From a virus (Duplodnaviria; Caudoviricetes), in IMG/VR virus record IMGVR_UViG_3300049926_000055, positions 1-56,334 of that record: DNA of 56,334 bases. One strand, given 5' to 3'. A model generated the notes under the pieces. It was not told where the DNA came from and did no database searches. It saw only the letters and a list, made by a program, of their open reading frames with translations. Shown here piece after piece: positions 19,945 through 55,385 of this stretch. How positions within the stretch are numbered: position 1 is the first letter of the stretch; each line of letters starts with the position of its first letter. The translations under genes were made by a program, and so were the position numbers.

Positions 19945-20214
19945 TCAGCCCTCCACGGGCGGCGCCACCACAAACGACCCCTTGCCCTGCACCGTGTAGA
20001 CGAGGCCCCGCTCCCGCAGCTCCCTGACCGCCCTGCGCGCCGTCAATCGGGCCACCCCGTACTCATCCGCCAGGCGAGTCTCTGCAGGGATCGGCCGGTC
20101 CGGCTGAATCTCCCCGGCCGCGATCTTCCCGGCGACGATGTCGGCGAGCTGCACGTAGACGGGGCGGCCACTGTTGTGGTCGATCAGCTCTGCGGGATCC
20201 TCTACACCACTCAC
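19945..20214 (-). CDS. GntR-family winged-helix regulator (DNA-binding domain only), probably leaderless
   Basis: PVYVQLADIV...IPAETRLADEYGVARLTARRAVRELRERGLVYTVQGKGSFV; TACGTT -10-like box 6 nt before GTG. Confidence 0.88.
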   Translation of the reverse strand: MSGVEDPAELIDHNSGRPVYVQLADIVAGKIAAGEIQPDRPIPAETRLADEYGVARLTARRAVRELRERGLVYTVQGKGSFVVAPPVEG

Positions 20215-20385
20215 AAGATCAACGTAGGGGGGTGCTGACCTGCCCACATCTCCGGATCCGTCCGCACTCCTCTACAGAGGTCTACGTAGCGGTGTAGCGT
20301 GGAATACCCCTAGACAAGGGGAAACCCCCCGCAGCCGATGGCACGGCCCGGGGGGATGGCCAACCTGAAGCGAGAGCAGGTCGAC

Positions 20386-28028: not shown

Positions 28029-29134
28029 TGCCCATCCTTGACCTCCAGATGCGGATGCGTCAGCTCGGCGAAATCCGCATCGGCCACACCATCGACACCG
28101 GCCGCACCGACAAGAACGGCAAGGCCATCAAGCGGCCCGCCAAGCTCAACGCGTTCCGCTTCACCAGCCCCTCCCGCGAGATCCTCACCAGCGTCGCCGA
28201 CCTGTACGGCGGCGAGGTCAAGCCCTGGACCCCCGCCAACGGCGGCCCGTCCGAGTTCGAGGTGTACTCCACCACCAACCGCCTCCCCGTCCTCATCCCC
28301 CCGCGCGACGCCGTATCCCAGTGGTACGAGCTGTACGCCGGATCCAAGTGCCAGCGCCGCTGCGACGGAGTCACCGAGCACAAGTCCGACCGGCCGTGCG
28401 TGTGCAACCCCGAGAAGCGGGACTGCAAGATCACCACCCGCGTGAACGTCATGCTCCGCGACGTCGCCGCCCTCGGCCAGTGGCTGCTCATCTCCAAGGG
28501 CTACTACGCCGGGGTCACCCTGCCGCCCGCCGCCGAACTCCTCGCCCAGGCCGGCGGGTACGTCGCCGGATGGCTCGGCATGGAGGAGAAGAGCGTCGTC
28601 ACCGACGACGGCACGAATCGCTTCTCTATCCCGACGCTGGACGTCGAGATCACCCCGACCGCACTCATGGCCGGACAGATGACCGGCGCGCAGGCCGTGG
28701 CGTCCGGCCCGGAGCGGGTCGCCATCACCGGCGGCCGCCCCGATTATGCGGCGCTCGCCGCGGTGGCGACGACGTCCGCCGAGGTCGCCGATCTGTACCG
28801 GCAGGCGGTCGCTGCCGGGCACATGGACAAGGAGCTCGCCGCCGTGCTCACGGCCCGGGGTGAGGCGCTGAAGCCGAAGCCCGCCACGCCCGCGCCCACA
28901 CCGCCGCCGCCCGCCCCGGTGCCCGACGCAGAGGGCGTGGTTGAGGCCGAGCTCGTCGATGACGACGTCACCGAGATCTGGTTCCAGATCATCGCCGCTG
29001 CCGGCCGCCACAACCTCACCACCGATGAGGTGACCGCCGAGTTCGCTCAGCAGCACGGCGGGCTGCACCCCTCCACCGCGTCCGCCGAGCAGCTGCGCGG
29101 CTTCCTCACCATCCTGAAGGGAGCCCGCGCATGA
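28028..29134 (+). CDS. Gp3-like protein (often annotated recombination directionality factor); candidate strand-annealing partner
   Basis: QLGEIRIG...RPAKLNAFRFTS...CQRRCDG...CKITTRVNVML; follows exonuclease. Confidence 0.6.
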   Translation: MPILDLQMRMRQLGEIRIGHTIDTGRTDKNGKAIKRPAKLNAFRFTSPSREILTSVADLYGGEVKPWTPANGGPSEFEVYSTTNRLPVLIPPRDAVSQWYELYAGSKCQRRCDGVTEHKSDRPCVCNPEKRDCKITTRVNVMLRDVAALGQWLLISKGYYAGVTLPPAAELLAQAGGYVAGWLGMEEKSVVTDDGTNRFSIPTLDVEITPTALMAGQMTGAQAVASGPERVAITGGRPDYAALAAVATTSAEVADLYRQAVAAGHMDKELAAVLTARGEALKPKPATPAPTPPPPAPVPDAEGVVEAELVDDDVTEIWFQIIAAAGRHNLTTDEVTAEFAQQHGGLHPSTASAEQLRGFLTILKGARA

Positions 29135-34298: not shown

Positions 34299-34473
34299 GG
34301 TCAGAGTGTAAGTCATGGTCAACCTTACCACGCTTGCCAAAGTGGTGAGTTTGATAAGATGGCGACGACGGGTGAGACGCGCGCAAAGCCGCCCTGACTC
34401 GGGCAATCAGACACGCCCCGAACCACCGCCCAGCCAGAGCACCAGCGCAACCCTTCTGACCGCAAGGAGCACC

Positions 34474-35979
34474 GTGGAGAACGTCCGCCCGATCAACCCG
34501 CGCGACACGGCGGACGACGACGGCCTCACCCGCAAGCCCCCGGCCAATGTCCCGGCCGAACTGGCCGTGTTGGCAGAGTGCATCCACAAGCCCGAGTCGT
34601 ACGCCGAAGCCGCCGCGATCATCGACCGCGCCGACTTCACCCAGCCCGCCCATCAGCTCGTCTGGGATGTCCTCGGCCAGCAGATCAGCACCAACGCGCC
34701 AACGAGCCCGATAGCACTGCACGCCGAGATCGAACGCCTCGGCCAGCTCCGCCTCGTCAACGGCGGCACCTACCTCTGGGAAATCTCCAGTGCCTTCGGA
34801 GCGGGCAGCGTCGACTACTTCGCCGAACTACTGCGCGACAAGACCCGCGAACGCGACGCCGATGCTCTCGCCACCCGCATCAAGACCGCCATCCTCAAGC
34901 AGGACGGCCCCGACGAGATCGACCGCCTCGTCACCGAGTACCAGCAGCAGCGCACCAGCAGCACCAGCGCCGACCCCGTTGCCTCCCGACTCATCGCCGG
35001 CGGCTCCTTCATCCTTGACCGCCCGGACACCGTCCCCGCCATCTGGGGCGAAGGCGACCAGGTCCTGTGGGCCGAAGGCGAAGGCCTGATCATCGCCGGG
35101 CCGGCTGGAGTCGGGAAGACCACCGTCGGCCAACAGGTCCTTCTCTCCGCCATCGGCATCCGACCCCACGCCCTCGGCCTCGCCGTGCGCCCCGCCAAGC
35201 GCGTTCTCTACCTCGCCTCCGACCGGCCCCAGCAGGCCGCCCGGTCCATGGCCCGCATGGTCACCACCGAACACCGCGACGTCCTCGACGAGCACTTGGT
35301 GTTCTGGCCCGGGCCGCCACCGAGCGACTTCATCAAAGACCCGTCGACCCTCGTCCGGCTCTGCGAGAAGGCCGGCGCCGACATGGTGTGCCTCGACAGC
35401 CTCAAGGACATGGCCGGCGAACTCGCCACCGAGGAAGGTGGCCAGGCCATCAACTCCGCGATTCAGCGCACCCTCGTCGAGGGCGTCGAGGTCATCGCCC
35501 TGCACCACCACCGCAAGCAGGGCGGCGGCAAGGACGGTGGCCGCGAACCCACCAGCCTTGACGAGCTGTACGGCTCCACGTGGATCACCGCGGGCGCGGG
35601 CTCTGTGATCTCCCTGTGGGGTGCGGCCGGTGACCCGATCGTGTCCATGAAGCACCTCAAGCAGCCCGCCGGGGAGTGCGGTCCGTGGCGCCTCAAGCAC
35701 GACCATCCGAACGGCTACACCGAGGTCTGGCACGAGGTCGACATCCTCGAAGTCCTCGTGCACGCCCGCGGCATGCTCACCGCCCAGCAGCTCGCCGCGC
35801 AGATCTACTCCCCGGACAAGGGCAAGCCCACCCCCAGCGAGGTCGAGAAGGCCCGCAGGAAGCTCGACCAGCTCGCCGAGAAGGGCCTCGCCCGGAAGGT
35901 CGGCGGCGGCCCCGGCGGCCGCGGCAAGGAGAGCGGCTACGTCGCGGCGTTCACGCCCGACGGGGTGATCGCCGAATGA
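34474..35979 (+). CDS. Replication protein: DnaB N-terminal domain + RecA/AAA_25-type helicase + C-terminal winged helix
   Basis: PPANVPAELAVL, DFTQPAHQLVW, GGTYL; Walker A GPAGVGKT; CLDS; LHHHRK; YGS; RBS aaggag. Confidence 0.8.
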   Translation: MENVRPINPRDTADDDGLTRKPPANVPAELAVLAECIHKPESYAEAAAIIDRADFTQPAHQLVWDVLGQQISTNAPTSPIALHAEIERLGQLRLVNGGTYLWEISSAFGAGSVDYFAELLRDKTRERDADALATRIKTAILKQDGPDEIDRLVTEYQQQRTSSTSADPVASRLIAGGSFILDRPDTVPAIWGEGDQVLWAEGEGLIIAGPAGVGKTTVGQQVLLSAIGIRPHALGLAVRPAKRVLYLASDRPQQAARSMARMVTTEHRDVLDEHLVFWPGPPPSDFIKDPSTLVRLCEKAGADMVCLDSLKDMAGELATEEGGQAINSAIQRTLVEGVEVIALHHHRKQGGGKDGGREPTSLDELYGSTWITAGAGSVISLWGAAGDPIVSMKHLKQPAGECGPWRLKHDHPNGYTEVWHEVDILEVLVHARGMLTAQQLAAQIYSPDKGKPTPSEVEKARRKLDQLAEKGLARKVGGGPGGRGKESGYVAAFTPDGVIAE

Positions 35980-35981
35980 GC

Positions 35982-36225
35982 CTCACGGAAACTCACGCAG
36001 AAACTCACGGTCATTCTCACGCGGAAACTCACGGCACCTCACGAAACTCACGATCCGGGTCTCTGTGCAGGTCAGAAACTCACGGGCCGAAACTCACGGT
36101 CGAATCTCACGCGGAAACTCACGCACCTCACGGTGATCAAGGAATCCGCAGGTCAAAAACTCACGCACAACTCACGCAAGAAACTCACGCGACCCCCCTC
36201 TCTAAAGAGAGGGGAGGGGGGTCGC
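35982..36225. repeat. Iteron array, putative replication origin
   Basis: 15 CTCACG cores (8 exact GAAACTCACG) followed by inverted repeat GCGACCCCCCTC...GAGGGGGGTCGC. Confidence 0.8.
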
Positions 36226-42540: not shown

Positions 42541-42571
42541 GAAGCCCCCCACTTGCCCAGTGGGGGGCTTC
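42541..42571. terminator. Bidirectional terminator
   Basis: GAAGCCCCCCACT-tgccc-AGTGGGGGGCTTC between convergent genes. Confidence 0.8.
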
Positions 42572-42584
42572 GTCGTGTGCGGGG

Positions 42585-42800
42585 TCAGAGTTGGTTGGGC
42601 TCCAGCATGCAGAACAGGGTCGCCCCGCTCTCGATCTCCAGCGCCGCGCAGGCCTTCGAGTACACGTCCTGGTACACCTCCTGCCGCGTCGCGCCCTTGG
42701 CCGCTACGGCAGTGCCCGCGATGGTGTTGACGTTGACGCCGGGGACGCCCTCTTTGACGAACTGGAGGGTGATCACGTAGTGGTACTCGCGCTTGCTCAC
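42585..42800 (-). CDS. Small hypothetical protein
   Basis: YHYVITLQ...TRQEVYQDV...LFCMLEPNQL; coupled to HTH gene. Confidence 0.6.
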   Translation of the reverse strand: MSKREYHYVITLQFVKEGVPGVNVNTIAGTAVAAKGATRQEVYQDVYSKACAALEIESGATLFCMLEPNQL

Positions 42801-43108
42801 GAGCCATCCCTCTCTTCGGCCCTCTTCGGCCGGTCCTTCCATGCGCCTGCATGGCCGCGCACGATGTCCTGCACCACGCCAGCCGACATGGCCAGCCGTT
42901 CCGCGATCTTGCGAATGGGGATCGCGGGGTCCTGGCTGCGCAGGGACAGCACAAGATCGCGGCGCTCCTTGTGCCAGTCCTTGACCTTGCTGGCCTGTAG
43001 TGCCAGCACCTGGTTCCTGGCCCGCACGCGCGCCTCAAGGTCCGTGATGCCGTCGATCTCATCAAGGGCGTCTGACACCCGCTGCACCTCCTCGCCTCTG
43101 TCGTCCAC
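42797..43108 (-). CDS. HTH regulator divergent from the transfer operon
   Basis: IPIRKIAERLAMSAGVVQDIVRG. Confidence 0.75.
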   Translation of the reverse strand: MDDRGEEVQRVSDALDEIDGITDLEARVRARNQVLALQASKVKDWHKERRDLVLSLRSQDPAIPIRKIAERLAMSAGVVQDIVRGHAGAWKDRPKRAEERDGS

Positions 43109-43151
43109 GCGCGTTCCTCTCCGGTAACCGGGAGGCGGCCCGTTCCAACGC

Positions 43152-43185
43152 TTGCATGGAGACCATACATGTGCGTATGGTCTCC
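43152..43185 (+). promoter_or_regulatory. Promoter and palindromic operator of the transfer operon
   Basis: TTGCAT-18 nt-TATGGT overlapped by GGAGACCATAC-6 nt-GTATGGTCTCC. Confidence 0.7.
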
Positions 43186-43304
43186 GTACAACGGCGGAGA
43201 GGAACCGTCTCCGTCAGCTAATAAGAACGGCCCCCGCTCCGCGCCTGGCAGCAATGGAGTGGGGGCCGGACCGCCCGTCACCGCTAAGTACACGGGAGAT
43301 CCAC

Positions 43305-43712
43305 GTGAAGGTTACCGACGACCCCACCCGTCAGCCCAGCCCCGCGCGTGCCGACCACCGCGACGACATCCCCGCCGGCCCCCCGCTGCCGCGCCCCGGC
43401 CGCATGCTGGTCGCCGCCGGACACGTCCACCGCGCCACCGGCATCGCCTACTCAGGCCGCGTCACCAACCGCGCGTTGACCCAAGCACGCAGCACCCTGG
43501 CCACCGCAGAGCAGCAGCTCGCCCACGTCCACGGGAACCGCGCCTGGCGCCTCGGGCTCCGCGTCGACAGCGCCAAGGCCACACTCCGCGCCGCCACGCC
43601 CTGCCCGAGTTGCGGCGGCGCCGGCGGCCGCACCGTCGACACCAGCAGCGGTGGCGTGTCCCGCCAGAGCTGGCAGACGTGCGGGACCTGCCGAGGATCC
43701 GGCACCCGCTAA
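43305..43712 (+). CDS. Protein with DnaJ-like CxxCxGxG Zn finger
   Basis: CPSCGGAGG...CGTCRGSG; first gene of the operon. Confidence 0.6.
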   Translation: MKVTDDPTRQPSPARADHRDDIPAGPPLPRPGRMLVAAGHVHRATGIAYSGRVTNRALTQARSTLATAEQQLAHVHGNRAWRLGLRVDSAKATLRAATPCPSCGGAGGRTVDTSSGGVSRQSWQTCGTCRGSGTR

Positions 43713-43794
43713 CCCCCAGACCGCCGTCGCCTCGGGGTGTTCCCCCACGGCCTGAGGCGACGGTGCCCCACCCCACCGCACCGGAGGAACCCCC

Positions 43795-44817
43795 GTGTCC
43801 GAGCGCCCGACCCTCACGACCACACAGCGATGGCTCACCGCAGCCGTCGCTGGTTTCGCGATCGTCATCGCCGGCATTGGATTCGCCGGCTCCTACGCCG
43901 CCGTGCGGCAGCTGGCGCTCGCGAAGGGCTTCGGCGAGTTCGCCACCGTCTTCCCCATCGGCCTCGACGCCGGGATCGGCGCGACCCTCGCCCTTGACTT
44001 GCTCCTCACCTGGCTGCGGATCCCCTTCCCCCTGCTCCGGCAGACCGCGTGGCTCCTCACCGCGGCGACGATCGCGTTCAACGCGGCCGCCGCGTGGCCG
44101 GACCCGATCGGCGTCGGCATGCACGCCGTGATTCCGATCCTGTTCGTCGTCGTCATCGAGGCCGCCCGGCACGCGATCGGCCGGGTCGCCGCCATCACCG
44201 CCGACCGCCACATGGAGCCCGTGCGCCTGTCGCGCTGGGTCCTCGCCCCGTGGCCGACGTTCCGGCTGTGGCGCCGCATGAAGCTGTGGGAACTCCGGTC
44301 CTATGACGAGGTTGTCCGGCTGGAGCAGGACCGTCTCGTGTACCGGGCGCAGCTGCGGGCGCGCTACGGCTGGGCGTGGCGCCGCCGGGCCCCCGTCGAG
44401 CTGGTGCTGCCGCTACGCCTGTCGCGCTACGGCGTGGCGGTCGCTGATGCTCCGGCCGCTATCGCGTCCGCTACGCCCGTCGCCACAGTTCCCGCTACGC
44501 CGAAGCGGACCCGTAGCGCGGTCGCCATCCCGGCCGCTACGCCCGCGCTGCCCGCCGCCACGGAGCCGCCCGCGACCGTGGCGCCCGCCGAACCGACCGC
44601 CACCGCCACGGCGTACGCCGTCGACGCGTACGAGCCCGGCACACCGCAGCACGTCGTCCACACCCTGTGGATGGTCACCGGCCACCGCCCGGGCGGGCCC
44701 GAGATCGCCGCAGCCCTCGGCACCGCCGGCCTGCCCAACTCTCCGCAGCAGGCCCGCAAGATCCGTGCGCAGGTCGCCCGCGAGATCGCCGACCTGCCCG
44801 GCCCGCGAGCTGCCTGA
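43795..44817 (+). CDS. DUF2637 / Spd-like membrane protein of actinomycete transfer elements
   Basis: GFAGSYAAV...FPIGLDAG...TAATIAFN...HAVIPILFVVVIEAARH...RWVLAPWPTFRLWRRMKLWELRSY; C-terminal HTH-like end. Confidence 0.8.
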   Translation: MSERPTLTTTQRWLTAAVAGFAIVIAGIGFAGSYAAVRQLALAKGFGEFATVFPIGLDAGIGATLALDLLLTWLRIPFPLLRQTAWLLTAATIAFNAAAAWPDPIGVGMHAVIPILFVVVIEAARHAIGRVAAITADRHMEPVRLSRWVLAPWPTFRLWRRMKLWELRSYDEVVRLEQDRLVYRAQLRARYGWAWRRRAPVELVLPLRLSRYGVAVADAPAAIASATPVATVPATPKRTRSAVAIPAATPALPAATEPPATVAPAEPTATATAYAVDAYEPGTPQHVVHTLWMVTGHRPGGPEIAAALGTAGLPNSPQQARKIRAQVAREIADLPGPRAA

Positions 44818-44935
44818 CCGCAACTACAGCCGCAGTCACACCGGCCCCGCGCCACCCACCTGAACAGCGCAAACCCCGCCCCAACCCTGACCGCAGCCGT
44901 AGTCAGGGTTCCAGTCACAGTGAGGAGGCCACCCA

Positions 44936-46402
44936 GTGGCCCGCACCGCACCGCCGCCCGCCGCACCGGTCGCGGCGCCCCCGGCCCCGCCGCCCGCCGC
45001 ACCCGCGGCCGAGCGGCCCTCGCCTGTTCTGGCCTGGCCGTCCGAGTGGCCCGTGCCCGAACCGCCTGCTCGCCAGTCGCGTGCCGGCCGGGGTCTGCCG
45101 ATGGCCCCGGTGATGGCTGCGGGGGGGAACGCCACGGCGATGACCGCTACGGCCGCGTACCAACTCGGTGGGCCGATCGCCGTAGCGGCCACGGGCGTCG
45201 TGGCGGTGGCGGGTGCTACGGCCGCCGTGGTGCGGCGGCGCGCTGCGGTCCGCCGTAGCGTGGCGCAGCGCGCGAGTCGCGCTACCGCTACGTGGGGGAG
45301 CGCTACGGGTGGCGGTGGCGCGTGGCGCAGCGCTACGCCGAAGTCGTCGGGGCGTGGCGGTGGCGGTAGCGGCACGTCGGGTGGCGGCCGTGGCGCCGGT
45401 GGCGGGCAGCGTGGCGGCGCTATGGCGCCATCGGTGAACCGTCCCCGTGGCGCCACCGGTAGCGGTGGAGGTTCCGGTTCCGGTGGCGGCCTGTCAGGCA
45501 AGGACCGCACCAAGGCATCCGGCGCCACCGGCACCGGCGCGTCCGACCGACCCGGCCGCCACGACTCCGGTAGCGGCAAGCGCCACGATCGCACCGGCAG
45601 CAAGGGCCACGGATTGAAGGCCGCCATCGGCCGCGCCCTGCGTGCTACCGCCCGGCCCGACTCGAAGACCCGCAAGACCCTCGGCGCCATCGGCCGTGGC
45701 ACCGTCGGCCGCACCTCACCCGCCGCCAAGACTCTGCGCGCCACCGGACGCGGCGCCAAGGCCGCATGGAACACGCCCGCCCGCCAGGCCGCCACCCGCG
45801 CCACAGCACGACAGGCGAAGCGGCTACGCGGCGCAGCGTGGGACGGCGTGCGCTCCATCCTGTCCGGCGCCCGCACGCTGCTCCACCGACGAGGCGGCAA
45901 GGCTGCGCTCGCGCGGATCCGAGACGTGTGGCACCGCCGCCGTGGCGCCCGCAACACCCCACCCACGCCGCCGCCCGCATCGGTCGCCGCATCCGTACGA
46001 CGCCCCACCGCCACCACAACCACGACCAGCACCGGAGGAACCGCCGTGTCCGGACACCACTTCGTCGCATCCGCCATGGAAGGCGCACGCGCCGCCGCCA
46101 ACTACGACCCCAAGGGAATGCTCGAAGTCGGCGAGGACTTCGCCGGCCTCGAAGAGGCGCTGCGCCTGCACGCCGAGGCTATGAAGGTCACCGTCGAGAA
46201 CGCCGACGCCAAGCTGCCTCTCGACCCGCGAATCATCGAGATCATGCGGCAGATCCACCAGCTTGAGATCAAGGCCGCCGAGATGGCCGCCGAGCTGAAG
46301 CCCGCGTTCGAAAAGTTGCACGACGTTGACCTCAGCCGCCTCCGCAACCCCCGCAAGGGCGTCCAGGGCGAGCGCATGTGGGACGTCACCGCCAACCTCT
46401 GA
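44936..46402 (+). CDS. TraA-like transfer protein (TM, Gly/Arg-rich linker, helical C-terminal domain)
   Basis: Directly upstream of the FtsK-like gene; ends FEKLHDVDLSRLRNPRKG..ERMWDV, resembling Streptomyces plasmid transfer proteins from memory. Confidence 0.55.
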   Translation: MARTAPPPAAPVAAPPAPPPAAPAAERPSPVLAWPSEWPVPEPPARQSRAGRGLPMAPVMAAGGNATAMTATAAYQLGGPIAVAATGVVAVAGATAAVVRRRAAVRRSVAQRASRATATWGSATGGGGAWRSATPKSSGRGGGGSGTSGGGRGAGGGQRGGAMAPSVNRPRGATGSGGGSGSGGGLSGKDRTKASGATGTGASDRPGRHDSGSGKRHDRTGSKGHGLKAAIGRALRATARPDSKTRKTLGAIGRGTVGRTSPAAKTLRATGRGAKAAWNTPARQAATRATARQAKRLRGAAWDGVRSILSGARTLLHRRGGKAALARIRDVWHRRRGARNTPPTPPPASVAASVRRPTATTTTTSTGGTAVSGHHFVASAMEGARAAANYDPKGMLEVGEDFAGLEEALRLHAEAMKVTVENADAKLPLDPRIIEIMRQIHQLEIKAAEMAAELKPAFEKLHDVDLSRLRNPRKGVQGERMWDVTANL

Positions 46403-46443
46403 CCGGCCTCGTCCTAACCACCTCCTCGATTCGGAGCAGCACC

Positions 46444-48537
46444 GTGAAACTCGACTGGGACACCGGCCACGGCCCCGTGACCGGGCCCATCAACACCGGC
46501 GTCGCCGCCCTGGCCGTCGGCTACGCCGGGCACGTCGCCCACATGCCCCCGTCCTGGGCCGCACTCGCGGCCGGGGCGGGGGCGGTCGGCACGCACATCG
46601 CCGGGCGCCGCAAGGACGTCACCGGGGCGACCCTCGCCCTGCGTGCCGCCGGGTGGCTCGGGGTCGGCGGCTGGTGCTCCTACGCCATGGCCAACGGCCC
46701 GTGGTCGCAGTGGGGCATCGGCAGCCTGCTCGCCGGGGCGCTCGGCCTCGGCGCGGCGATGGCCGGGGCGCACCACGTCGAGCACAAGGCTGAAGAGAAG
46801 AAGGCTGTGGCCGAGGCCGCCGCGCGCCGCGCCACCCTCGACGGCAAGCGGAAGGTCATCGCGGACGAGTGGGAGGACCGCATCGTCCGCGTCTGCACCG
46901 GCAGCGTCGTGCAGATCGTCGGCGTCGAGATGTGGGAGTCCGGCGGCGGCTTCGTCCTCGACGGCGAGTGCGGCCCCGGCGGCACCCGCTGGAAAGACAT
47001 CGTCGCGTACCAGGACGCGCTCGCCGCAGACGCCAAGCTGCCCGAGGGCTGCGGCGTTGAAGTGAGGCAGGGCGCCCACCGCGGCGCTGTCCTCATCGAC
47101 GTCTCCACCGTCAATCGGCTGCTCGGAGAGGAGACCTACCCGGCGGACTACTCGCCCCTCACCCTCAACGGGCCGCTGCCGTTGGGCATGCACCGCGACG
47201 GCGAGGGGGCCGCCCCCACGATCCGGGAGTTCACCACGCTGCTCGCCGGCCGCAAGGGCTCCGGAAAGACCAACCTGTCCAACGTCTTCCTGGCTGGCAC
47301 CGCCCGCATGACCGACAACCTGACGTGGGTCATCGACCTCAACGGGGGTGGCCTCGCCCTGCCGTGGCTGCACGCCTGGCACGCCGCCGGACGCCCCGGC
47401 CGGCCGCCGGTCGACTGGGTCGCAGACACCCCGGAGAAGGCCCTGGCGATGGCGAAGGCAGCGCTGCGCATCGCGAAGGCCCGCAAGCCGGGGTACAAGC
47501 ATCTGGAGATCGCCGCCAACGACGACAAGCTGCCCGTGTCGGCCGCCGTGCCGGGCATCCTCATCGCCGGGGATGAGATCGCCGAGTTGTACTCGCCGAA
47601 GGCCAGGCAGAACGAGGTGCTCAAGGAGACGGGCGACATCCTCGTGCAGGTCGTCGAGCTGGCCCGCGCGGTCGCCGTCAACGCGCTCATCACCGCGCTG
47701 CGCGCCACGCAGGACGTGTTGTCGGAGCCTCAGTTGCTTGCGCAGTCCGGCCTGAAGATCGGCATGAAGTCCGACGAGCGGGAACTGTCCTACCTGTTCG
47801 GCTGGAACGACAAGCTGTCGCCGGAGGACGCCCCGTACCCCGGCTGCGGCTTCATGAAGGTGCTCGACGAGCCCGCCCGGCCGTTCAAAGCCTTCCGGAT
47901 GCTCCCGAACCAGATCGCCGACGTCGTCGCCGCCACATCCGGCCTGCACCCCGAGCTCGACGAGTTGTCCCGCAAGGCCGCAGGGCAGGCGTACGAGCAG
48001 CGGTGGATGGGCACCGACCACCTCTTCGGCCTCGGCCCCGCTCCGGTGGCCGAGTCCCAGCCCGACACCCCTGCCGCGCCCGACCAGCCGCGCACGTCCG
48101 GCGTCACGGCCGGCTGGGGCACCACCACGACGGCCACGGCGAGCACCGCGCAAGACGCCATCGACGAGGCCGAGGCCGCCCGGCGGAAGCTGCGCCAGGC
48201 GATGGACGAGGCCGGGCAGCGCGACGGCGACCTCGCCGCACAGTTCCGCAGCGTCGTCGACGGCGGCGGACTCGGCTGGACCCCGCCCACGGTCGACGCG
48301 GCCCCCGTCGAGCTGGGCAAGAAGCCTGACCCGCGCAAGGCCCTCGTGTTCGAGATCGTCGCCGGGTCCGGCGGCCCCGGCATCGGCCCCGAGGCCATCC
48401 GGGAGTTCATCACCCGCCTGCACCCCGACACCGACCCGCCGCACGCCGCGACGATCGGCCGCTGGCTCGACGCCGACCCCCGTATCCACAAGCCCAGTTA
48501 CGGCCGGTACGCCGTCCGGCCCGACCTCGACCAGTGA
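46444..48537 (+). CDS. traB: FtsK/SpoIIIE-family DNA translocase, TraB-like
   Basis: N-terminal TM helices, Walker A AGRKGSGKT, WVIDLNGG, Walker B IAGDEIAE, C-terminal winged-helix-like domain. Confidence 0.8.
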   Translation: MKLDWDTGHGPVTGPINTGVAALAVGYAGHVAHMPPSWAALAAGAGAVGTHIAGRRKDVTGATLALRAAGWLGVGGWCSYAMANGPWSQWGIGSLLAGALGLGAAMAGAHHVEHKAEEKKAVAEAAARRATLDGKRKVIADEWEDRIVRVCTGSVVQIVGVEMWESGGGFVLDGECGPGGTRWKDIVAYQDALAADAKLPEGCGVEVRQGAHRGAVLIDVSTVNRLLGEETYPADYSPLTLNGPLPLGMHRDGEGAAPTIREFTTLLAGRKGSGKTNLSNVFLAGTARMTDNLTWVIDLNGGGLALPWLHAWHAAGRPGRPPVDWVADTPEKALAMAKAALRIAKARKPGYKHLEIAANDDKLPVSAAVPGILIAGDEIAELYSPKARQNEVLKETGDILVQVVELARAVAVNALITALRATQDVLSEPQLLAQSGLKIGMKSDERELSYLFGWNDKLSPEDAPYPGCGFMKVLDEPARPFKAFRMLPNQIADVVAATSGLHPELDELSRKAAGQAYEQRWMGTDHLFGLGPAPVAESQPDTPAAPDQPRTSGVTAGWGTTTTATASTAQDAIDEAEAARRKLRQAMDEAGQRDGDLAAQFRSVVDGGGLGWTPPTVDAAPVELGKKPDPRKALVFEIVAGSGGPGIGPEAIREFITRLHPDTDPPHAATIGRWLDADPRIHKPSYGRYAVRPDLDQ

Positions 48538-48551
48538 CCGGAGACACCGTC

Positions 48552-49001
48552 ATGGACCCCTACCGCACGCCCGAGCAGGTCGACGTGCGCCTGCCCACCG
48601 CCATCTACCCGGCCGCCCCGGTCGAGCCGTACGTACAGCCCGGCCCGGTCGTGTGGGTGCCCGACGCCTACGGCCGCCTCGTCCCCATGCCCAAGGACCT
48701 CGCCCCCGCCCCCGTGCAGGCGACACCGCCTCGGGACCTCACCCCGGTCCCGCTCATCGGCGAGCGCGCGCAGACCATCGCCGCCAGCGGCGTGTTCGCG
48801 GCCGGAGCCGGATGGGGCGTCGGCCAGGTCCTGTCCGGGCTCGCCGGGATCAGCAGCGGCCTCGTCATGTGGATCGCCATCGCGATCGTCGCCGCACGCC
48901 TCGGCGGGCCCGGCGGCGGTGGCACCTCGACCGTGCACAACGAGACGCACATCAACAACCACAACCGCTGGTGGGGCAAGTCCACCACCAACAGCCACTG
49001 A
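48552..49001 (+). CDS. Spd-like Pro-rich membrane protein
   Basis: Pro-rich N-terminus, two TM helices, VHNETHINNHNRWWG tail; coupled to traB. Confidence 0.6.
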   Translation: MDPYRTPEQVDVRLPTAIYPAAPVEPYVQPGPVVWVPDAYGRLVPMPKDLAPAPVQATPPRDLTPVPLIGERAQTIAASGVFAAGAGWGVGQVLSGLAGISSGLVMWIAIAIVAARLGGPGGGGTSTVHNETHINNHNRWWGKSTTNSH

Positions 49002-49014
49002 CCAGGGGGACACC

Positions 49015-49608
49015 ATGGCCACCATCACCCGCGCCACCCGCCGCCGCCGCAAGGTCCGCATCGACGGATGGGGCGCCACCGGCCTCGGCGTCCTCGCCAT
49101 CGCCATCGCCGGATACCTGCACCACCACCCCGGCGTCGCGGTGGCCCTCGGCGTGACCATCGCCGCCAGCATCGCCCTGTACGTCATCGCCCGCCGCCGG
49201 CTCCGACGACGCAAGCCCCGGGCTGCCGGCCGCCGCTTCCTCAAGCTGTCGCCGACCAGCTTCGAGGACGCGGTCGCCGACCTCATGCGGCGCAGCGGTG
49301 TTGCTGACGCCCGGCGTACCGGCGGCGCGGGCGACCTCGGCGCGGACGTTGTGGGCTGGGACCGGGCCGGCCGGAAGGTTGTGACGCAGTGCAAGCGGTA
49401 CGCGGTTGATCGGGCTGTCGGCAGCGAGGACATGCAGCGGTTCATGGGGACCGCCCGCGTCCATCACTGTGCGGGTGTTGCGCTGTTCGTGACGACGTCG
49501 CGGTTCACGAAGCCCGCGCTCGACTACGCCCGGCAGCACGACATTCGGACCGTGGATGGTGAGCAGCTCGCGGAGTGGGATCGCACGGGATACGCCCCCT
49601 GGCTGTGA
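49015..49608 (+). CDS. Membrane-anchored Mrr-type (PD-(D/E)XK) nuclease domain protein
   Basis: Two TM helices, then SPTSFEDAVA, GGAGDLGADV, VTQCKRY, VTTSRFT. Confidence 0.85.
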   Translation: MATITRATRRRRKVRIDGWGATGLGVLAIAIAGYLHHHPGVAVALGVTIAASIALYVIARRRLRRRKPRAAGRRFLKLSPTSFEDAVADLMRRSGVADARRTGGAGDLGADVVGWDRAGRKVVTQCKRYAVDRAVGSEDMQRFMGTARVHHCAGVALFVTTSRFTKPALDYARQHDIRTVDGEQLAEWDRTGYAPWL

Positions 49609-49656
49609 TTCGCCTGCGACACTGATGGTTCACGCCGGGTAGCGCCCGGCATAACG

Positions 49657-49691
49657 AGACCCCACCGCGTTCCCCCGTCGCGGTGGGGTCT
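49657..49691. terminator. Bidirectional terminator ending the transfer operon
   Basis: AGACCCCACCGCG...CGCGGTGGGGTCT. Confidence 0.75.
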
Positions 49692-49705: not shown

Positions 49706-50044
49706 TCAGGCCTGCGGGCAGCCCTCGGTGTGCCAGGTCTCGGTGGTTGTTCCTGTCAGGCTGGCGGTGATGATGCGGGTGTCGCCGGTGCGGGGTGTGG
49801 CGTGGCATTCGGGGCATTCGAGTTTCTGGTGCAGGGCTTCTTGTCCCTCGCGGGTGATGCGCCGCACCGTCTCGCGGCTGTAGCCGGTGGCTTCGATGAT
49901 GTCCTTCTGCGGCATGCCTTCGCCGGCGGCGCGGGCGAAGATCTTGGCGCGCTCGCGGTCGGCGTCGGCACGGATGCGTTCGGCCTCGGCGACTGCGGCG
50001 TCGTGCCGCTTCTTTGCTGCTGCCAGATCGTCCTTGGTAACCAT
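49706..50044 (-). CDS. HTH regulator with C-terminal Zn module
   Basis: GMPQKDIIEATGYSRETVRRI; CPEC...WH..GC. Confidence 0.75.
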   Translation of the reverse strand: MVTKDDLAAAKKRHDAAVAEAERIRADADRERAKIFARAAGEGMPQKDIIEATGYSRETVRRITREGQEALHQKLECPECHATPRTGDTRIITASLTGTTTETWHTEGCPQA

Positions 50045-50066
50045 GCCCTCATGATGCCACATGCGT

Positions 50067-50122
50067 TAGGCCTCGCCTAGTTGTTGACATGCCTCACGTG
50101 CGAGGCCTAGACTATGAGGCAT
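50067..50122 (+). promoter_or_regulatory. Consensus housekeeping-type promoter with operator repeats
   Basis: TTGACA(50084)-18 nt-TAGACT; TAGGCCTCGC/GCGAGGCCTA and ATGCCTCA/TGAGGCAT inverted pairs. Confidence 0.75.
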
Positions 50123-50151: not shown

Positions 50152-50547
50152 GTGAAGCACACCAGCCGTCAGCTGAGCGAGACCACCACCGCCGACATGT
50201 ACCGCGCGATGGACCGCCAGCACCCGGTCACCCTCACCTACACCAAGGCAGACGGCAGCGAGACCATCCGCACCGTTGAAATCCGAGACATCCGCACCAC
50301 CAAGGCCGGCGCCCTCATCCTCCGCGCCGCCGACCGCCAGTCCGGCGAGATGCGCACCTGGCGGATCGACCGCATCGAGAGCTACACCACCCACCGCACC
50401 GCCTACGTGGTCGAGCTCCCCGCCAGCGAGACCCCCGCCGCCCCCGTCTTCACCGCGCCGGCCGCGCTCACCGCCTACGAAGAGGCCCGCGACGAGGCCG
50501 CCGCCGACCGCCGTTACTGGACCAGCCGCTACGACGAAGCCGCCTGA
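50152..50547 (+). CDS. Stand-alone WYL-domain protein
   Basis: VTLTYTKADGSETIRTVE...DRQSGEMRTWRIDRI. Confidence 0.8.
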   Translation: MKHTSRQLSETTTADMYRAMDRQHPVTLTYTKADGSETIRTVEIRDIRTTKAGALILRAADRQSGEMRTWRIDRIESYTTHRTAYVVELPASETPAAPVFTAPAALTAYEEARDEAAADRRYWTSRYDEAA

Positions 50548-51228: not shown

Positions 51229-51720
51229 ATGGCAGGCACACCACCCGGCGACCAGACCCGCGGCGGCGACGGCCGATACATCCCCACCCTCACCACCGCC
51301 CAACGCCAAAACGCAGCCGCCGAACTCCGCTCCCAAGGCAAGAGCTACCGCGCCATCGCCGCCGAACTCGGCGTCGACGTCAAAACCGCCCACACCCACG
51401 TCCAAGCCGCACTCCGCGCCATCGTCGAAGAAGCAGCCGAAGACGTACGCCGCATCGAACTCGACCGCCTCGACACCATGTACGCCGCAGCCATGGGCGT
51501 CCTCGAACGACAGCACGTCACCGTGTCCCAAGGCCGCATCATCTACAACGGCGAAGAACCCCTCCTCGACGACGCACCCGTCTTGCAGGCCATCGACCGG
51601 CTACTGCGGATCGCCGAACGCCGCGCCAAGCTCTTGGGCCTGGACTCCGCGCAGAAGGTTGATGTGTCCGGCGGCGTGAAGTACGAGATCGTCGGCGTCG
51701 ACCCGAAGGATCTCGCGTAG
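51229..51720 (+). CDS. terS: Terminase small subunit
   Basis: HTH GKSYRAIAAELGV, ELDRLD, ERRAKLLGLD; adjacent to TerL. Confidence 0.8.
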   Translation: MAGTPPGDQTRGGDGRYIPTLTTAQRQNAAAELRSQGKSYRAIAAELGVDVKTAHTHVQAALRAIVEEAAEDVRRIELDRLDTMYAAAMGVLERQHVTVSQGRIIYNGEEPLLDDAPVLQAIDRLLRIAERRAKLLGLDSAQKVDVSGGVKYEIVGVDPKDLA

Positions 51721-53057
51721 TGACTGCCGGCGCGGCTGGCACAGTCGTCCGGTACGAGCCGCGTGGCGCAGGCCTCGACCTGTTCCACTGCAAGGACAAC
51801 GAGGTGCTGCTCTCCGGCGCGGCAGGCACTGGCAAGAGCGTGGCCGCGCTCATGAAGGTCCACCTCACCTGCCTGTCCGTGCCGAAGGTCCGGGCGCTCA
51901 TCGTCCGCAAGACCCACGCATCACTCACCGCGTCGACGCTCGTGACGTTCCGGCAGAAGGTCGCCGCCGAGGCCCTGGCCACCGGCGCCGTGTCGTTCTA
52001 CGGCGGGTCCGCCCAGGAGCCGGCAGCGTTCCGCTACAGCAACGGCTCGGTCATCGTCGTCGGCGGTCTCGATCGCGCCTCGCGTCTGTTGAGCACCGAG
52101 TACGACCTGTGTTTCGTGGACGAGGCGATCGAGACCACCCCGGAAGACCTCGACACGATCATCACCCGGCTGCGTAACGGGCGGTTGTCCTATCAGCAAT
52201 TGATCTTGGCCACCAACCCCGGTCCGCCCACCCACCACCTGAAACAACGCGCCGACGCCGGGCGCAGCACCATGCTCTACAGCCGCCACGAGGACAACCC
52301 CCGGCTCTACCAAGGCGGCGAGTGGACCGAGTACGGACAGGCCTACCTGGACCGCCTCGATGGCCTCTCCGGGGCGCGCTACCAACGGATGCGCTGGGGA
52401 AAGTGGGTAGCTGCCGAAGGGCAGGTGTACGAGCAGTGGGATGAGTCGCTGCACCTCATCGACCCGTTCCCTGTGCCGCCCGAGTGGACCAGGTGGTGGT
52501 CGATCGACTTCGGGTACACGGCGCCGCTCGTCCTCCAGACGTGGGCAGAGGACGGGGACGGCAGGCTCTACCTGCTGCGGGAGATCTTCCGCACGCGCCG
52601 CCTCGTCGAGGACCACGCTGCGCACATCCTGAGGCTCGTCAGGGACGACGACGGCCAGTGGACCGAGCCCCGCCCGCGCGCCATCATCTGCGACCACGAC
52701 GCCGAAGACCGGGCCACCCTCGAACGACACCTCGGCATGTCCACCGTCGCAGCGAAGAAGACCGTCAGCGACGGCATCCAGGCCGTACAGTCCCGCCTGA
52801 AGGTGGCCGGTGACGGGAAGCCCCGCCTGTTCATCGTGCGCGGGGCGCTGGCCGAGCGAGACCAGGCCCTCGCAGACGCGGTGAAGCCCACGTGCACGGA
52901 GGAGGAGTTCCCCGGCTATGTGTGGGCGGTGAAGCCCGGGGCGGCCGGCGGCCTGAAGGAGGAGCCGGTGAAGCAGGATGACCACGGGATGGACGCGATG
53001 CGGTACATGGTGGCGCAGCGGGATCTCGGTGGCCGGCCGAACGTGCGTTGGCTCTGA
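51720..53057 (+). CDS. terL: Terminase large subunit
   Basis: Walker A SGAAGTGKS, Walker B FVDEA, ATNP, SIDFGY and DHGMDAMRY. Confidence 0.93.
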   Translation: MTAGAAGTVVRYEPRGAGLDLFHCKDNEVLLSGAAGTGKSVAALMKVHLTCLSVPKVRALIVRKTHASLTASTLVTFRQKVAAEALATGAVSFYGGSAQEPAAFRYSNGSVIVVGGLDRASRLLSTEYDLCFVDEAIETTPEDLDTIITRLRNGRLSYQQLILATNPGPPTHHLKQRADAGRSTMLYSRHEDNPRLYQGGEWTEYGQAYLDRLDGLSGARYQRMRWGKWVAAEGQVYEQWDESLHLIDPFPVPPEWTRWWSIDFGYTAPLVLQTWAEDGDGRLYLLREIFRTRRLVEDHAAHILRLVRDDDGQWTEPRPRAIICDHDAEDRATLERHLGMSTVAAKKTVSDGIQAVQSRLKVAGDGKPRLFIVRGALAERDQALADAVKPTCTEEEFPGYVWAVKPGAAGGLKEEPVKQDDHGMDAMRYMVAQRDLGGRPNVRWL

Positions 53058-53270: not shown

Positions 53271-55385
53271 GTGGGTAAGACCCTCCTCGGCTCCCTCGCC
53301 AACGCCGCCGCACGCCGCACCGCTGAGATGCCCATCCCCTACACCGGGCGCAGCGCCTCCAAGACCAGCTTCTTCGGACGTCTCACCGGCGCCGAAGCCC
53401 AACTCCGCGCCATGTCCAGCGTCGGCACCCTCTTCGCCATCGTCGACCGCACATCGAACGCCACCGCATTGGTCGAGTGGAAGCTGTGGCGCAAAGCCAA
53501 ATCCGGCCGCGACGAAGACCGCGTCGAGGTCACTGCGCACGCCGCCCTCGACCTGTGGAACAAGCCCAACCCGTTCATGCCACGGCAGGAATACGTCGAG
53601 ACAAGCACGCAGCACTACGACCTGACCGGCGAGACCTGGTGGGTCATCGCCCGAGCCTCCGGCTACACGATCCCGCTGGAGATGTGGCCCGTCCGCCCCG
53701 ACCGCATGACCCCGGTCCCGGACCGCGAACGCTTCCTCGCCGGATACATCTACACCAGCCCCGACGGCGAGCAGGTCCCCCTCGGCCTGGACGAGGTCAT
53801 CCAGATCCGCCGGCCGAACCCCATGGACCCCTACCGCGGGCTGTCGCCGGTTCTGTCGATCCTTCCCGACCTGGACACCGCGCGGTATTCCGCGGAGTGG
53901 GCGCGGGCGTTCTTCATCAACAGCGCGCAGCCCGGCGGGATCATCGAGTTGCCGTCCAGCCTCGACGACAACGAGTTCAACCAGCTCCGCGAGCGCTGGA
54001 ACGAACAGCACCGAGGCGTCGGCAACGCCCACCGCGTGGCCATCCTGGAGATGGGCAAGTGGGTTGACCGCACCATCAGCCAGCGCGACATGCAGTTCGT
54101 GGAACTGCGAGGCGTCACCCGCGACGCGATCCGCGAGGCCTACGGCATCTCCAAGTCCGCACTCGGTGACTTCGAGGACGTCAACAGGGCCGCATCCCTC
54201 ACGGCTAAGGCCTGGTTCGCAGAGCAGATCACCATCCCCCGCCTGGAACGCATCAAGGCCGCACTGAACCACGACCTGCTCCCCATGTTCGGACCCACCA
54301 CGCAGGGCCTGGAGTTCGACTACTGCAACCCCGTCCCTGCGGATCCCGAGGTCGAGTCCACTCAGCTCACAGCGCGGGCGAACGCCGCAGCAGCCCTGCG
54401 CACAGCGGGCTGGGAGCCGGCCGGGGTGCTATCGGCCGTGGGTCTGCCGGAGATCCCGTTCAGCGGCCCGGCCGCCGCCCCCGCTCTGCCGTCGGCGCCG
54501 CTTCCCAAGGCCCTGGCCGCGCCGGCGGCTGCCTACACGGTCGAGCGCCTGGCGCTCCCGGCCGCGCCGGTGGACACGGCGTGGGACGCGATGGTCGCTG
54601 GGCTGCTGCCCACGTTCACCGCGGCCGTGGACGCTGATCTGACGGCCGTGCAGTCCCTGCACACGTTCGCCCTCGACACTCTCGTGGCGCGCTGGGGCGA
54701 GGACGTTCTACCGGGCCAGTACCAGGCGCTGCGCGAGCAGATCGCCGCCGCTGTCGACGGCAACGACCTCGCCGCACTGTCCACGCTGACGCTGCCCACC
54801 GACGCCGCGGTGACGGTGCTGCGCACCGCACTGGCCGATACGGCGGACTCTGCGGCCGAGCAGGTGGCAGGGCAGGCGCGGGCGCAGGGCGTGGACGTGA
54901 CGGCGCCGAAGGTCGACGAGAGCGTACGCAACAGCGCGTCGCGGCTGCTGGTCGTGGACTTCGGCGCGGAACTGTCCGAGATCGCCGCCGCCACCGCCGG
55001 GCTCCTCGCCGGGGATGTCGTGACGTCGGCGGTCGCGGAGGCCATCCGCCTGTTCGCGCCGGGCGTGGACGGGGCATCGATTGCCGGGCAGGTTGTGGAG
55101 TTCGTCCGCGGCCTGAAGGGCGCGTTCCGTCGCTCCCGGCTGGGTGGGGCACTGCACCGCGCGGTGAACGTCGGGCGGCTGGCGACGATCGCGGAGGCCC
55201 CCAAGGCGGTCCTGACGGCCAGCGAGAAGCTGGACACGAACACGTGCCAGCCCTGTCAGGACATCGACGGCACCGAGTTCGACGATGTCGCCGCGGCGTG
55301 GGCGGCGTACGGCGCCGGCCCGTACTGGGCCTGTGAAGGACGGGACCGCTGTCGCGGCACTGTTACGGCGAGGTGGGAGTCATGA
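53271..55385 (+). CDS. HK97-type portal protein fused to a MuF-like domain
   Basis: KPNPFM, LTGETWW, RGLSPV, FFINSAQPGG, RDMQFVE; C-terminal D.NTCQPC...C.GR.RCRG. Confidence 0.88.
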   Translation: MGKTLLGSLANAAARRTAEMPIPYTGRSASKTSFFGRLTGAEAQLRAMSSVGTLFAIVDRTSNATALVEWKLWRKAKSGRDEDRVEVTAHAALDLWNKPNPFMPRQEYVETSTQHYDLTGETWWVIARASGYTIPLEMWPVRPDRMTPVPDRERFLAGYIYTSPDGEQVPLGLDEVIQIRRPNPMDPYRGLSPVLSILPDLDTARYSAEWARAFFINSAQPGGIIELPSSLDDNEFNQLRERWNEQHRGVGNAHRVAILEMGKWVDRTISQRDMQFVELRGVTRDAIREAYGISKSALGDFEDVNRAASLTAKAWFAEQITIPRLERIKAALNHDLLPMFGPTTQGLEFDYCNPVPADPEVESTQLTARANAAAALRTAGWEPAGVLSAVGLPEIPFSGPAAAPALPSAPLPKALAAPAAAYTVERLALPAAPVDTAWDAMVAGLLPTFTAAVDADLTAVQSLHTFALDTLVARWGEDVLPGQYQALREQIAAAVDGNDLAALSTLTLPTDAAVTVLRTALADTADSAAEQVAGQARAQGVDVTAPKVDESVRNSASRLLVVDFGAELSEIAAATAGLLAGDVVTSAVAEAIRLFAPGVDGASIAGQVVEFVRGLKGAFRRSRLGGALHRAVNVGRLATIAEAPKAVLTASEKLDTNTCQPCQDIDGTEFDDVAAAWAAYGAGPYWACEGRDRCRGTVTARWES

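Follow-up and report, generated by a model that had tools for sequence, protein, structure and literature searches.

A putative DNA transfer cassette in a complete phage genome

Exploring the IMG/VR virus record IMGVR_UViG_3300049926_000055 (56,334 bp, ~69% G+C), which was analysed at its full length and is referred to here as the window, we found an intact set of rightward genes at 42.5-49.7 kb of what is a complete, temperate phage with a Streptomyces-like host; the set is enclosed by two hairpins with 12-bp stems and centred on a 697-amino-acid (aa) ATPase predicted to be a TraB-type pump for double-stranded DNA (dsDNA) (Table 1). Genes for a zinc-finger protein, a DUF2637 integral membrane protein and a 488-aa protein that we call X precede the ATPase gene, while those for a small membrane protein and a membrane-anchored Mrr-type nuclease follow it, and a candidate regulator is encoded divergently at the left end. 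Given that every cassette frame is open and that X and the ATPase differ little in length from their relatives, no frameshift was seen, in agreement with the first-pass annotation of this DNA, which had described a contiguous operon with undisturbed frames. Genes were called by the G+C content of third codon positions (GC3), which tells real genes from many spurious frames in the window, and the PHROG and Pfam scans covered 46 and 52 called genes, respectively.

Table 1. Positions of the cassette features and of the principal phage genes in the window (TM, transmembrane; nt, nucleotides)
Feature	Position	Strand	Remarks
Left boundary hairpin	42541-42571		12-bp G+C-rich stem, 7-nt loop, terminator-like, without T-run; read directly
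85-aa protein	42585-42842	-	GC3 0.87; 3' of the regulator gene
103-aa candidate regulator	42797-43108	-	divergent; GC3 0.83; marginal winged-helix match (HTH_24, E 0.011)
Operator candidate	43158-43185		perfect 11-bp inverted repeat, 6-nt spacer, in the divergent gap
135-aa zinc-finger protein	43305-43712	+	first rightward gene; two CxxCxGxG motifs; GTG start preceded by GGGAGA
DUF2637 integral membrane protein, 340 aa	43795-44817	+	PF10935, E 1.6e-40; phrog_29003, E 6e-89
CGCTACG(S) array, candidate clt	44362-45331	both	5 of 6 phase/strand classes; from DUF2637 gene tail to X head, upstream of pump
Protein X, 488 aa	44936-46402	+	directly upstream of pump
TraB-type dsDNA translocase (predicted), 697 aa	46444-48537	+	phrog_31069 'FtsK/SpoIIIE-like', E 2.5e-87
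Small membrane protein, 155 aa	48534-49001	+	GC3 0.94; one TM segment, 98-128; start overlaps ATPase stop
Membrane-anchored Mrr-type (type IV restriction-like) nuclease	48919/49015-49608	+	TM segment; Mrr_cat, E 7.7e-26; PADLOC mREase_IV, E 2.6e-18
Right boundary hairpin	49658-49690		12-bp G+C-rich stem, 9-nt loop, without T-run; read directly; common to the convergent helix-turn-helix gene at 49706-50062 (-)
Major capsid protein	from 18		PHROG/Pfam
Tape measure	8742-12260		PHROG/Pfam
GH25 endolysin	17001-18218		PHROG/Pfam
Tyrosine integrase	21954-23207	-	sole integrase in window
DnaB-like helicase	34315-35979		PHROG/Pfam
TerL	51720-53057		PHROG/Pfam
Portal	53271-55385		PHROG/Pfam
ClpP-type protease	from 55373		PHROG/Pfam

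The pump resembles FtsK-type motors and escapes the usual Pfam model

The ATPase carries a Walker A motif (GRKGSGKT) and a Walker B motif (DE), and PHROG 31069 was its only match, since NCBIfam, PADLOC and direct PDB sequence searches returned none. A profile built from 55 diverse members of its family (A2) matched the FtsK motor (2iuu) best, at E 6.5e-13, followed by YukB, TcpA and EccC, and reached Fur/ArgR winged helices weakly (E 0.006-0.012). The AlphaFold model (pLDDT 88.5) begins with N-terminal helices (residues 13-31, 37-56, 61-84 and 89-150) and a small beta domain; the P-loop core comes next, followed by a disordered linker and, at the C-terminus, a winged helix at 630-691 (helices 630-641, 649-659 and 668-677, strands 681-685 and 688-691; pLDDT ~95). 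Foldseek comparison of this model retrieved the FtsK motor 2iut (E 4e-14 over 409 columns), the conjugation coupling protein TcpA (E 2.5e-13), EccC (E 3e-10) and, more weakly, HerA. Because a hydropathy scan flags one of the N-terminal helices only, membrane association of this end of the protein is a prediction. Scored against the family profile, pIJ101 Tra was the best of the named comparators tested (52.3 bits), EccC-like proteins reaching 46.5 bits summed over several domains and chromosomal Streptomyces FtsK 40.1 bits. Together, the profile and model comparisons point to an FtsK-type motor with the architecture of TraB, as the first-pass annotation had proposed in calling the protein an FtsK/TraB-like translocase.

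Chromosomal FtsK, the product of a host-chromosome gene of ~800-950 aa, combines a PF01580 motor with a gamma domain, whereas the ATPase of the window has neither a PF01580 nor an FtsK_gamma match in Pfam. Type VII EccC/EssC proteins carry two or three tandem FtsK-like ATPase domains without a DNA-binding winged helix; the window's protein, in contrast, consists of one motor domain plus a winged helix, and EccC ranks below FtsK and TcpA in the comparisons above.

The usual PF01580 model misses the family. Scanning one Streptomyces genome that carries a sister prophage, this model reported 15 places, and the prophage pump was not among them. Among 8000 candidates scored, 329 proteins belonged to the family at E <=1e-3, and none of the best 120 of these has a precomputed Pfam domain; clustering at 50% gave 695 family representatives at E <=1e-3. 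In some members an FtsK gamma domain is added after the family winged helix, resulting in two DNA-reading domains (loci L015, L023, L027, L046, L048 and plasmid L006); on a plasmid member it was detected by Pfam at E 4e-19 and was also seen in the alignment.

Relatives occur in phages, plasmids and integrative elements

Searching viral contigs with the single ATPase sequence returned no relative, and an alignment was needed as the query. IMG/VR then yielded 25 related loci, 21 of them close (54-71% identity), with X directly upstream of the pump in 20 of the 21, the remaining locus beginning inside the pump gene. In several, genes of the HNH-like, TerL and portal kinds lie within a few kb on the downstream side. 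A scan of one genome per species, for which we used alignment A1 since A2 was too diverse for this purpose, gave 27 loci, 14 close (54-72%) and 13 distant (30-41%); because A1 reaches closer relatives only, distant chromosomal members are under-sampled. TerL, portal and capsid genes lie downstream in the close genomic loci L037, L038 and L042, and overall X precedes the pump in 45 of 52 loci. The close relatives of the cassette are all in Streptomyces or Streptacidiphilus.

Eight phage records matched the pump by tblastn, namely Hiyaa (2 records), Spocter, Galactica and Keanu at 37-38% identity, Thermobifida phage P1312 at 34% and ZL12 (2 records) at 27%, and 33 plasmid records held a match as well. 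The best plasmid match (NZ_CP108596.1, locus L002; pump 57% identical), a 51.8-kb circular 'plasmid' in the finished assembly of Streptomyces sp. NBC_01177, is a full tailed phage with terminase, portal, capsid, tape measure, a serine recombinase and the same cassette. No ParA match was found in it, and the record represents either a phage-plasmid or a prophage that has excised. That this sister phage was deposited as a circular plasmid indicates that free circles of such phages occur. Streptomyces plasmids also repeat a trio of a DUF2637 protein, a large protein with an X-like C-terminal domain and the pump.

Full-length pump relatives (30-41% identity, most with X upstream) were found in canonical loci of the actinomycete integrative and conjugative element (AICE) type (L049, L050, L052, L055, L058 and L061), and the make-up that Ghinet et al. 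(2011; PMC3218068) give for AICEs fits these distant loci. The distant loci variously hold Prim-Pol (L049, L050, L052, L055, L061), DUF3631/RepAM (L049, L050, L052, L055, L058), a tyrosine integrase (L052, L055, L056, L059, L061) and, near the pump, full-length GntR regulators (L052, L053, L057, L058), and PF01580 weakly reached four of the AICE-type pumps.

A quick tree of 55 rows (midpoint root; support by the Shimodaira-Hasegawa-like approximate likelihood ratio test, SH-aLRT, only), from which we left out L039 (identical in sequence to L014), the cut L024, L025 and L053, and L034 (<450 aa), united the IMG/VR, prophage-like and NBC_01177 sequences in a clade of 34 rows (SH-aLRT 100), set the AICE pumps apart in a clade of 7 rows (SH-aLRT 100) and placed Hiyaavirus, P1312, plasmids and ZL12 on long branches. 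The cassette is syntenic, before the packaging genes, in mosaic phages, and the pairwise ratio of nonsynonymous to synonymous substitution rates (dN/dS) of the pump was 0.15-0.57 in 12 pairs, values that strong codon bias probably inflates. The survey of phage and prophage genomes that had been suggested for this locus found the same cassette at the same place in the 34-row clade, and the cassette is an old, conserved part of the phage lineage rather than a recent fusion. The synteny across many independent records argues against a chimeric assembly.

A repeated motif upstream of the pump is a candidate clt

Pooling both strands and scanning all 7-mers of the window for local enrichment in 1 kb, we found that CGCTACG is the most locally enriched 7-mer of the genome, with 13 of its 26 copies within 970 bp (Poisson p 5e-15), and that the 8-mer CGCTACGS has 12 of its 20 genome copies in the same segment. 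Depending on the copy, CGCTACG encodes R-Y-G, L-R or A-T-P; since the same DNA word is read in these different ways, the array does not amount to a single repeated peptide. The top 7-mer lay at -2615 to -433 of the pump start in 31 of 32 related loci (L014 and L039 being the same sequence), and in L019 the same place ranked second. The motif classes in the 32 loci were CGCTACG (12 loci), CGCCACG (6), CGCCCCG/GGCGCCC (6), CGGAACC (3) and various other words (5). Where the recognition helix lies, HAATIGRW was read in all 12 CGCTACG loci; CGGAACC was paired with S-R-x-x-x-T-x-W in 3 of 5 loci, which fall at two distinct points of the tree, and CGCCACG with N-x-x-V-I-[GA]-R-W in 4 of 5, suggesting that the motif class changes in part together with the recognition helix. 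In the AICE relatives L049, L050, L052, L055 and L056, a non-coding stretch of 200 bp that follows the rep gene holds the related TCCGCTAC 11-13 times, and their helix, RRPVIQRWL, has the I-x-R-W-L ending at the same position.

In the available text of PMC3583192, clt sites are described as clusters of 5-9-bp repeats bound by the winged helix of the pump. By its form and conserved position, and by analogy with these sites, the CGCTACG array is a candidate clt, that is, a docking site for the pump. Exact-repeat tools detected no obvious clt in the window, and when 9-mers with 4 or more copies were sought, most of the repeats recovered were of the peptide type, with spacing in threes. Ranked second for enrichment across the genome, the word GAAACTCACG is present in 8-10 copies in 200 bp of non-coding DNA (35988-36190) right after the DnaB-like helicase gene. 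We set these iterons aside as clt: because the array abuts the helicase gene it is likelier to be a replication origin, and it most likely represents the origin of the phage.

Membrane proteins, nuclease and control region of the cassette

The DUF2637 protein has about 4 hydrophobic segments and a low-complexity tail, and is 41-63% identical to DUF2637 proteins adjoining related pumps on plasmids. Protein X is composed of a Pro-rich N-terminus, one TM helix, a Gly/Arg-rich disordered linker and a conserved C-terminal helical domain, the only part modelled by AlphaFold at pLDDT >=90. No family match to X was found in Pfam (relaxed search included), PHROG or NCBIfam, Foldseek returned no match at E 0.001 or better, and a protein atlas search gave unnamed clusters only, with scores <0.9. 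Prediction of a complex between the C-terminal domain of X and the cytoplasmic part of the pump scored 0.02 and was uninformative either way. The 155-aa protein matched no family, and has homologues 3' of the pump in 10 loci. The frame of the Mrr-type nuclease is open from 48919, though translation more likely starts from the ATG at 49015. An Mrr gene lies 3' of the pump in 5 of the 21 close viral loci and in 0 of the 14 close genomic loci, indicating that the nuclease is a variable accessory gene.

At the left end, homologues of the 103-aa gene occupy the same divergent position in L011, L012, L014/L039, L035 and L042, and a palindrome was present at the same position in 4 of the 5 other loci with such a homologue that we checked, L012, L014 and L042 having an exact one, L035 an imperfect one and L011 none; that of L035 was read by eye, the exact-match script not having reported it. 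The first-pass annotation had assigned the operon its own divergent repressor with promoter and operator: a divergent gene with a marginal helix-turn-helix match and a palindrome are indeed there, but no promoter was detected in the divergent gap by a sigma-70 consensus scan, so that for a promoter the palindrome is what remains. The flanking terminators it had named correspond to two hairpins, neither with a T-run, and the left one escaped a T-run-based terminator scan. A further G+C-rich hairpin (of the GGCCCCC...GGGGGCC type) lies at 43190-43300, between palindrome and first gene, and is kept in position in L012, L014, L035 and L042; it is a possible leader terminator or attenuator of the cassette.

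The zinc-finger protein scored below the cut-off of the DnaJ_CXXCXGXG model (24.3 against 32.7 bits), and NCBIfam holds no model for any cassette protein apart from weak helix-turn-helix rows. No Pfam, PHROG, NCBIfam or PADLOC match was found for the 85-aa protein, homologues of which adjoin the cassette in L014/L039 and L022. Near the lysogeny genes, at 19945-20247 (-), we observed a gene for a 100-aa protein consisting of a GntR-type DNA-binding domain only (E 1.1e-13), which has tblastn relatives in AICE-type and other related loci and could act as a TraR/Kor-like regulator of the cassette from 23 kb away. On the right, a short WYL-domain protein (50152-50547) and the convergent helix-turn-helix protein separate the cassette from the packaging genes, and the space between these two genes contains an inverted repeat together with a sigma-70-like promoter, the sole one in this region (50084-50113).

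The phage genome

The record has a CheckV completeness of 100% and is classed as 'linear'. Its first 20 nt are identical to its last 20 nt and the protease frame crosses the junction and stops shortly after it, supporting a circular or circularly permuted genome. A full tailed-phage gene set was present, including excisionase-like helix-turn-helix, exonuclease and RusA genes, whereas the PHROG and Pfam scans of the window found no Rep, RepSA, Prim-Pol, RepAM or ParA and no integrase besides the tyrosine integrase; nor were tRNA genes found in the window. These results bear out what had been read from the sequence at first pass, a circular genome equipped for virion formation, lysis and integration, with no second integrase or plasmid Rep. 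The accompanying description as a 'phage-AICE hybrid' was overstated, since an AICE replication/integration module (RepSA, RepAM, Prim-Pol) is lacking, a full virion and lysis set is present, and the cassette is an old part of the phage lineage. Phage-plasmids of the pZL12 kind combine virion genes with replication and partition functions of plasmids and persist as free replicons; the window holds no ParA or plasmid Rep, and does hold a tyrosine integrase and a Gp3-like directionality factor.

The latter, at 28028-29134, matches PF18897 at E 1.5e-37. Gp3 is a known partner of serine integrases; the integrase of this phage is a tyrosine recombinase. In the virion region, the protein encoded at 2987-4672 combines a baseplate-type N-terminus with a GDSL lipase/acylhydrolase domain and is possibly a tail-borne esterase directed against the host envelope.

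Comparison with known transfer systems

Like the window, pZL12/ZL12 (GQ919031) is a tailed phage genome in which genes for a large protein and a membrane protein stand ahead of that for an FtsK-like pump (pZL12.71c-73c), and according to the available text of PMC3583192 its transfer needs a major tra gene along with two neighbours. The pump pZL12.71c, presumably this 'major tra', is 28% identical to that of the window over ~500 residues (E 1e-32). The window is an integrative phage of 56 kb that lacks ParA and Rep, whereas pZL12, at 90 kb, is an extrachromosomal plasmid-prophage with a ParA-like match plus a tyrosine integrase. In the tree its pump is remote from the window's clade and has a long branch; by BLASTP at E 1e-3 neither pZL12.72c nor 73c matched X or the DUF2637 protein, and Pfam gave no DUF2637 match for 73c.

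The Tra proteins of AICEs of the Prim-Pol/RepAM type share full-length homology (30-41%), the upstream X gene and the three-part layout with the window's pump, together with the related repeat TCCGCTAC and the I-x-R-W-L at the recognition helix. AICEs differ in adding GntR, Prim-Pol, RepAM and their own integrase and in having no virion genes; their array is non-coding and follows the rep gene whereas that of the window is embedded in coding sequence, and their pumps, in a separate clade, include four that weakly reach PF01580, which the window's protein does not.

In pSVH1, TraB is described as the one essential transfer gene and the Spd proteins as spread factors (PMC4447253, available text). 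As far as the same text and that of PMC3583192 go, pSVH1 TraB and pIJ101 Tra combine a membrane anchor with an FtsK-like motor and, at the C-terminus, a winged helix by which short repeats are read, the layout predicted for the window's pump. Both systems also resemble the window, with its putative helpers and candidate regulator, in that the membrane proteins acting as helpers are encoded in a single operon where stops overlap starts, and in having a divergent repressor. In contrast to the window's ATPase, pIJ101 Tra matches PF01580 (E 9e-10). The pIJ101 proteins SpdB, SpdA and KilB are unrelated to the DUF2637 protein, X and the 155-aa protein, SpdB not being a DUF2637 protein, and the regulator beside the window's cassette is not of the GntR type.

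Among isolated phages, Galactica gp99 and P1312 gp63 are 31-38% identical to the window's pump by BLASTP; by tblastn the Hiyaavirus and P1312 records share 34-38% identity over 54-99% of the query, and they belong to the same phrog_31069. In Galactica two membrane proteins precede the pump, as in the window. Hiyaavirus and P1312 differ in being 60-83-kb phages of other lineages on long branches. Two papers on new Streptomyces phages, in the parts available, mention FtsK-like genes only as possibly replicative or host-like, and the open literature searched turned up no link between integrative actinophages and TraB-type transfer.

A proposed role in DNA transfer or spread

We propose that the cassette is a phage-owned, TraB-type dsDNA transfer or spread module that would move the phage's own circle between hyphae, across cross-walls, or both, a reading that has the best support and that we hold to be evenly poised between right and wrong. 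The pump would be membrane-anchored and is assumed to form an FtsK-like ring; its C-terminal winged helix would dock on the CGCTACG array of the excised or replicating circle, and ATP hydrolysis would then drive phage DNA from one side of a septal cross-wall or hyphal contact to the other. Help at the membrane or wall, in a Spd-like manner, would come from the DUF2637 protein, X and the 155-aa protein, and the 103-aa regulator together with the palindrome would hold the cassette off until induction. What the data show is the homology, the fold and the domain layout, the conserved pair of X and pump genes, the relatives in AICEs and on plasmids, and the array with its conserved position; ring formation, recognition of the array, movement of phage DNA and the roles of helpers and regulator we infer. 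The anatomical side of the first-pass interpretation is accordingly supported, while its functional side, virion-free transfer or spread, belongs with what would follow from it. It is possible, though we consider it doubtful, that an old lineage of integrative temperate Streptomyces phages is effectively 'conjugative', in that the excised circle would be loaded via a clt embedded in coding sequence onto a TraB-type pump and be passed to neighbouring hyphae or compartments without virions.

Several observations weigh against a transfer module of this kind. The ATPase matches no Pfam family, FtsK_SpoIIIE (PF01580) included, even at E 10, and BLASTP of the ATPase against pIJ101 Tra was marginal (E 0.018). 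The DUF2637 protein, X and the 155-aa protein have no match to any named Spd or TraA protein, in a comparison made with pIJ101 SpdB, SpdA and KilB, and the first-pass labels 'TraA-like' and 'Spd-like' found no backing in homology to named proteins. The array lies in low-complexity, G+C-rich coding DNA in which k-mer enrichment is partly expected, and repeats in several relatives are spaced in multiples of 3 as in peptide repeats. The link between helix and motif is imperfect, HAATIGRW also occurring with CGCCCCG (5 loci) and CGCCACG (1 locus), and is confounded by kinship. Finally, no integrase, large serine recombinase or ParA was found in Galactica, an isolated phage with the module, and a role in infection therefore fits better than mating from lysogen to recipient, at least in the lineage of Galactica.

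Such a role would have the pump act in productive infection only, driving replicating phage DNA through septal cross-walls and enlarging the infected unit before lysis, with no mating. The module is indeed present in the isolated plaque-forming phages Hiyaa, Spocter and Keanu as well as in Galactica, the cassette stands at the end of the early/replication region directly before the packaging genes, and pSVH1 TraB and Spd proteins drive intramycelial spread (PMC4447253, available text). Nevertheless, a divergent regulator of its own and the boundary hairpins suggest control apart from the lytic cascade, and the AICE and plasmid relatives serve cell-to-cell transfer; we regard a purely lytic role as unlikely. 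The main rival that involves no transfer, an exclusion or defence module in which ATPase, membrane partners and Mrr nuclease would keep conjugative elements or superinfecting phages out of a prophage-bearing cell or expel their DNA, draws mostly on the last gene, which encodes a type IV restriction-like nuclease and is followed by the WYL gene, and on the HerA/FtsK-superfamily ATPases that work in several defence systems. This we find improbable: PADLOC gave no match for the ATPase, X, the DUF2637 protein or the small proteins, the Mrr gene is variable while the pump-X pair is constant, the nearest structures are FtsK and TcpA rather than defence HerA, and a winged helix with a motif array on its own DNA fits self-recognition.

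The FtsK motor as best structural match, the gamma domain of some members and the sister phage kept as a free circle with no ParA match would also suit a pump that partitions or clears the phage circle or prophage DNA at sporulation septa, as FtsK/SffA do for the chromosome, that is, maintenance instead of transfer. However, the phage has an integrase and so needs no partition, the relatives belong to transfer modules of AICEs and plasmids, and the array is clustered at one site rather than skewed along the genome, and we consider maintenance decidedly improbable. Protein export of the type VII kind, with X (through its C-terminal helical hairpin) as substrate or partner of an EssC/EccC-like ATPase, seems very improbable. 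Although EccC/EssC are among the structural and profile matches and the C-terminal domain of X gave weak, non-significant fold rows for EsxA/EsxOP-type hairpins (E >1), the pump has a single motor domain instead of three, a DNA-type winged helix at its C-terminus and, in some members, an FtsK gamma domain, and FtsK and TcpA outscore EccC. The absence of an AICE Rep or second integrase beside the cassette could indicate a decaying AICE or plasmid remnant carried as a non-functional passenger, yet all frames are intact, the cassette keeps its place in the 34-row clade of mosaic phages and prophages, and pump dN/dS is <1 in 12 of 12 pairs, leaving this explanation hardly credible.

Implications

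What is new is that a lineage of integrative phages has a divergent Tra family together with a candidate clt embedded in coding sequence, a novelty tempered by pZL12 as an experimental precedent and by the FtsK-like genes already annotated in isolated actinophages. AICE surveys rest on the FtsK_SpoIIIE Pfam model, as described in the available text of PMC3218068, and because this model misses the pump family of the window, such surveys undercount transfer modules. Should phage DNA indeed be moved by the pump, a second route of transmission would be open to temperate Streptomyces phages, one that escapes both receptor-based resistance and particle-based counts, and mobilisation of host DNA, antibiotic gene clusters included, would be possible as with AICEs. 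If, beyond this, the lineage proves to be 'conjugative', virion-free phage spread and chromosome mobilisation would be a common, uncounted gene flow in soil actinomycetes.

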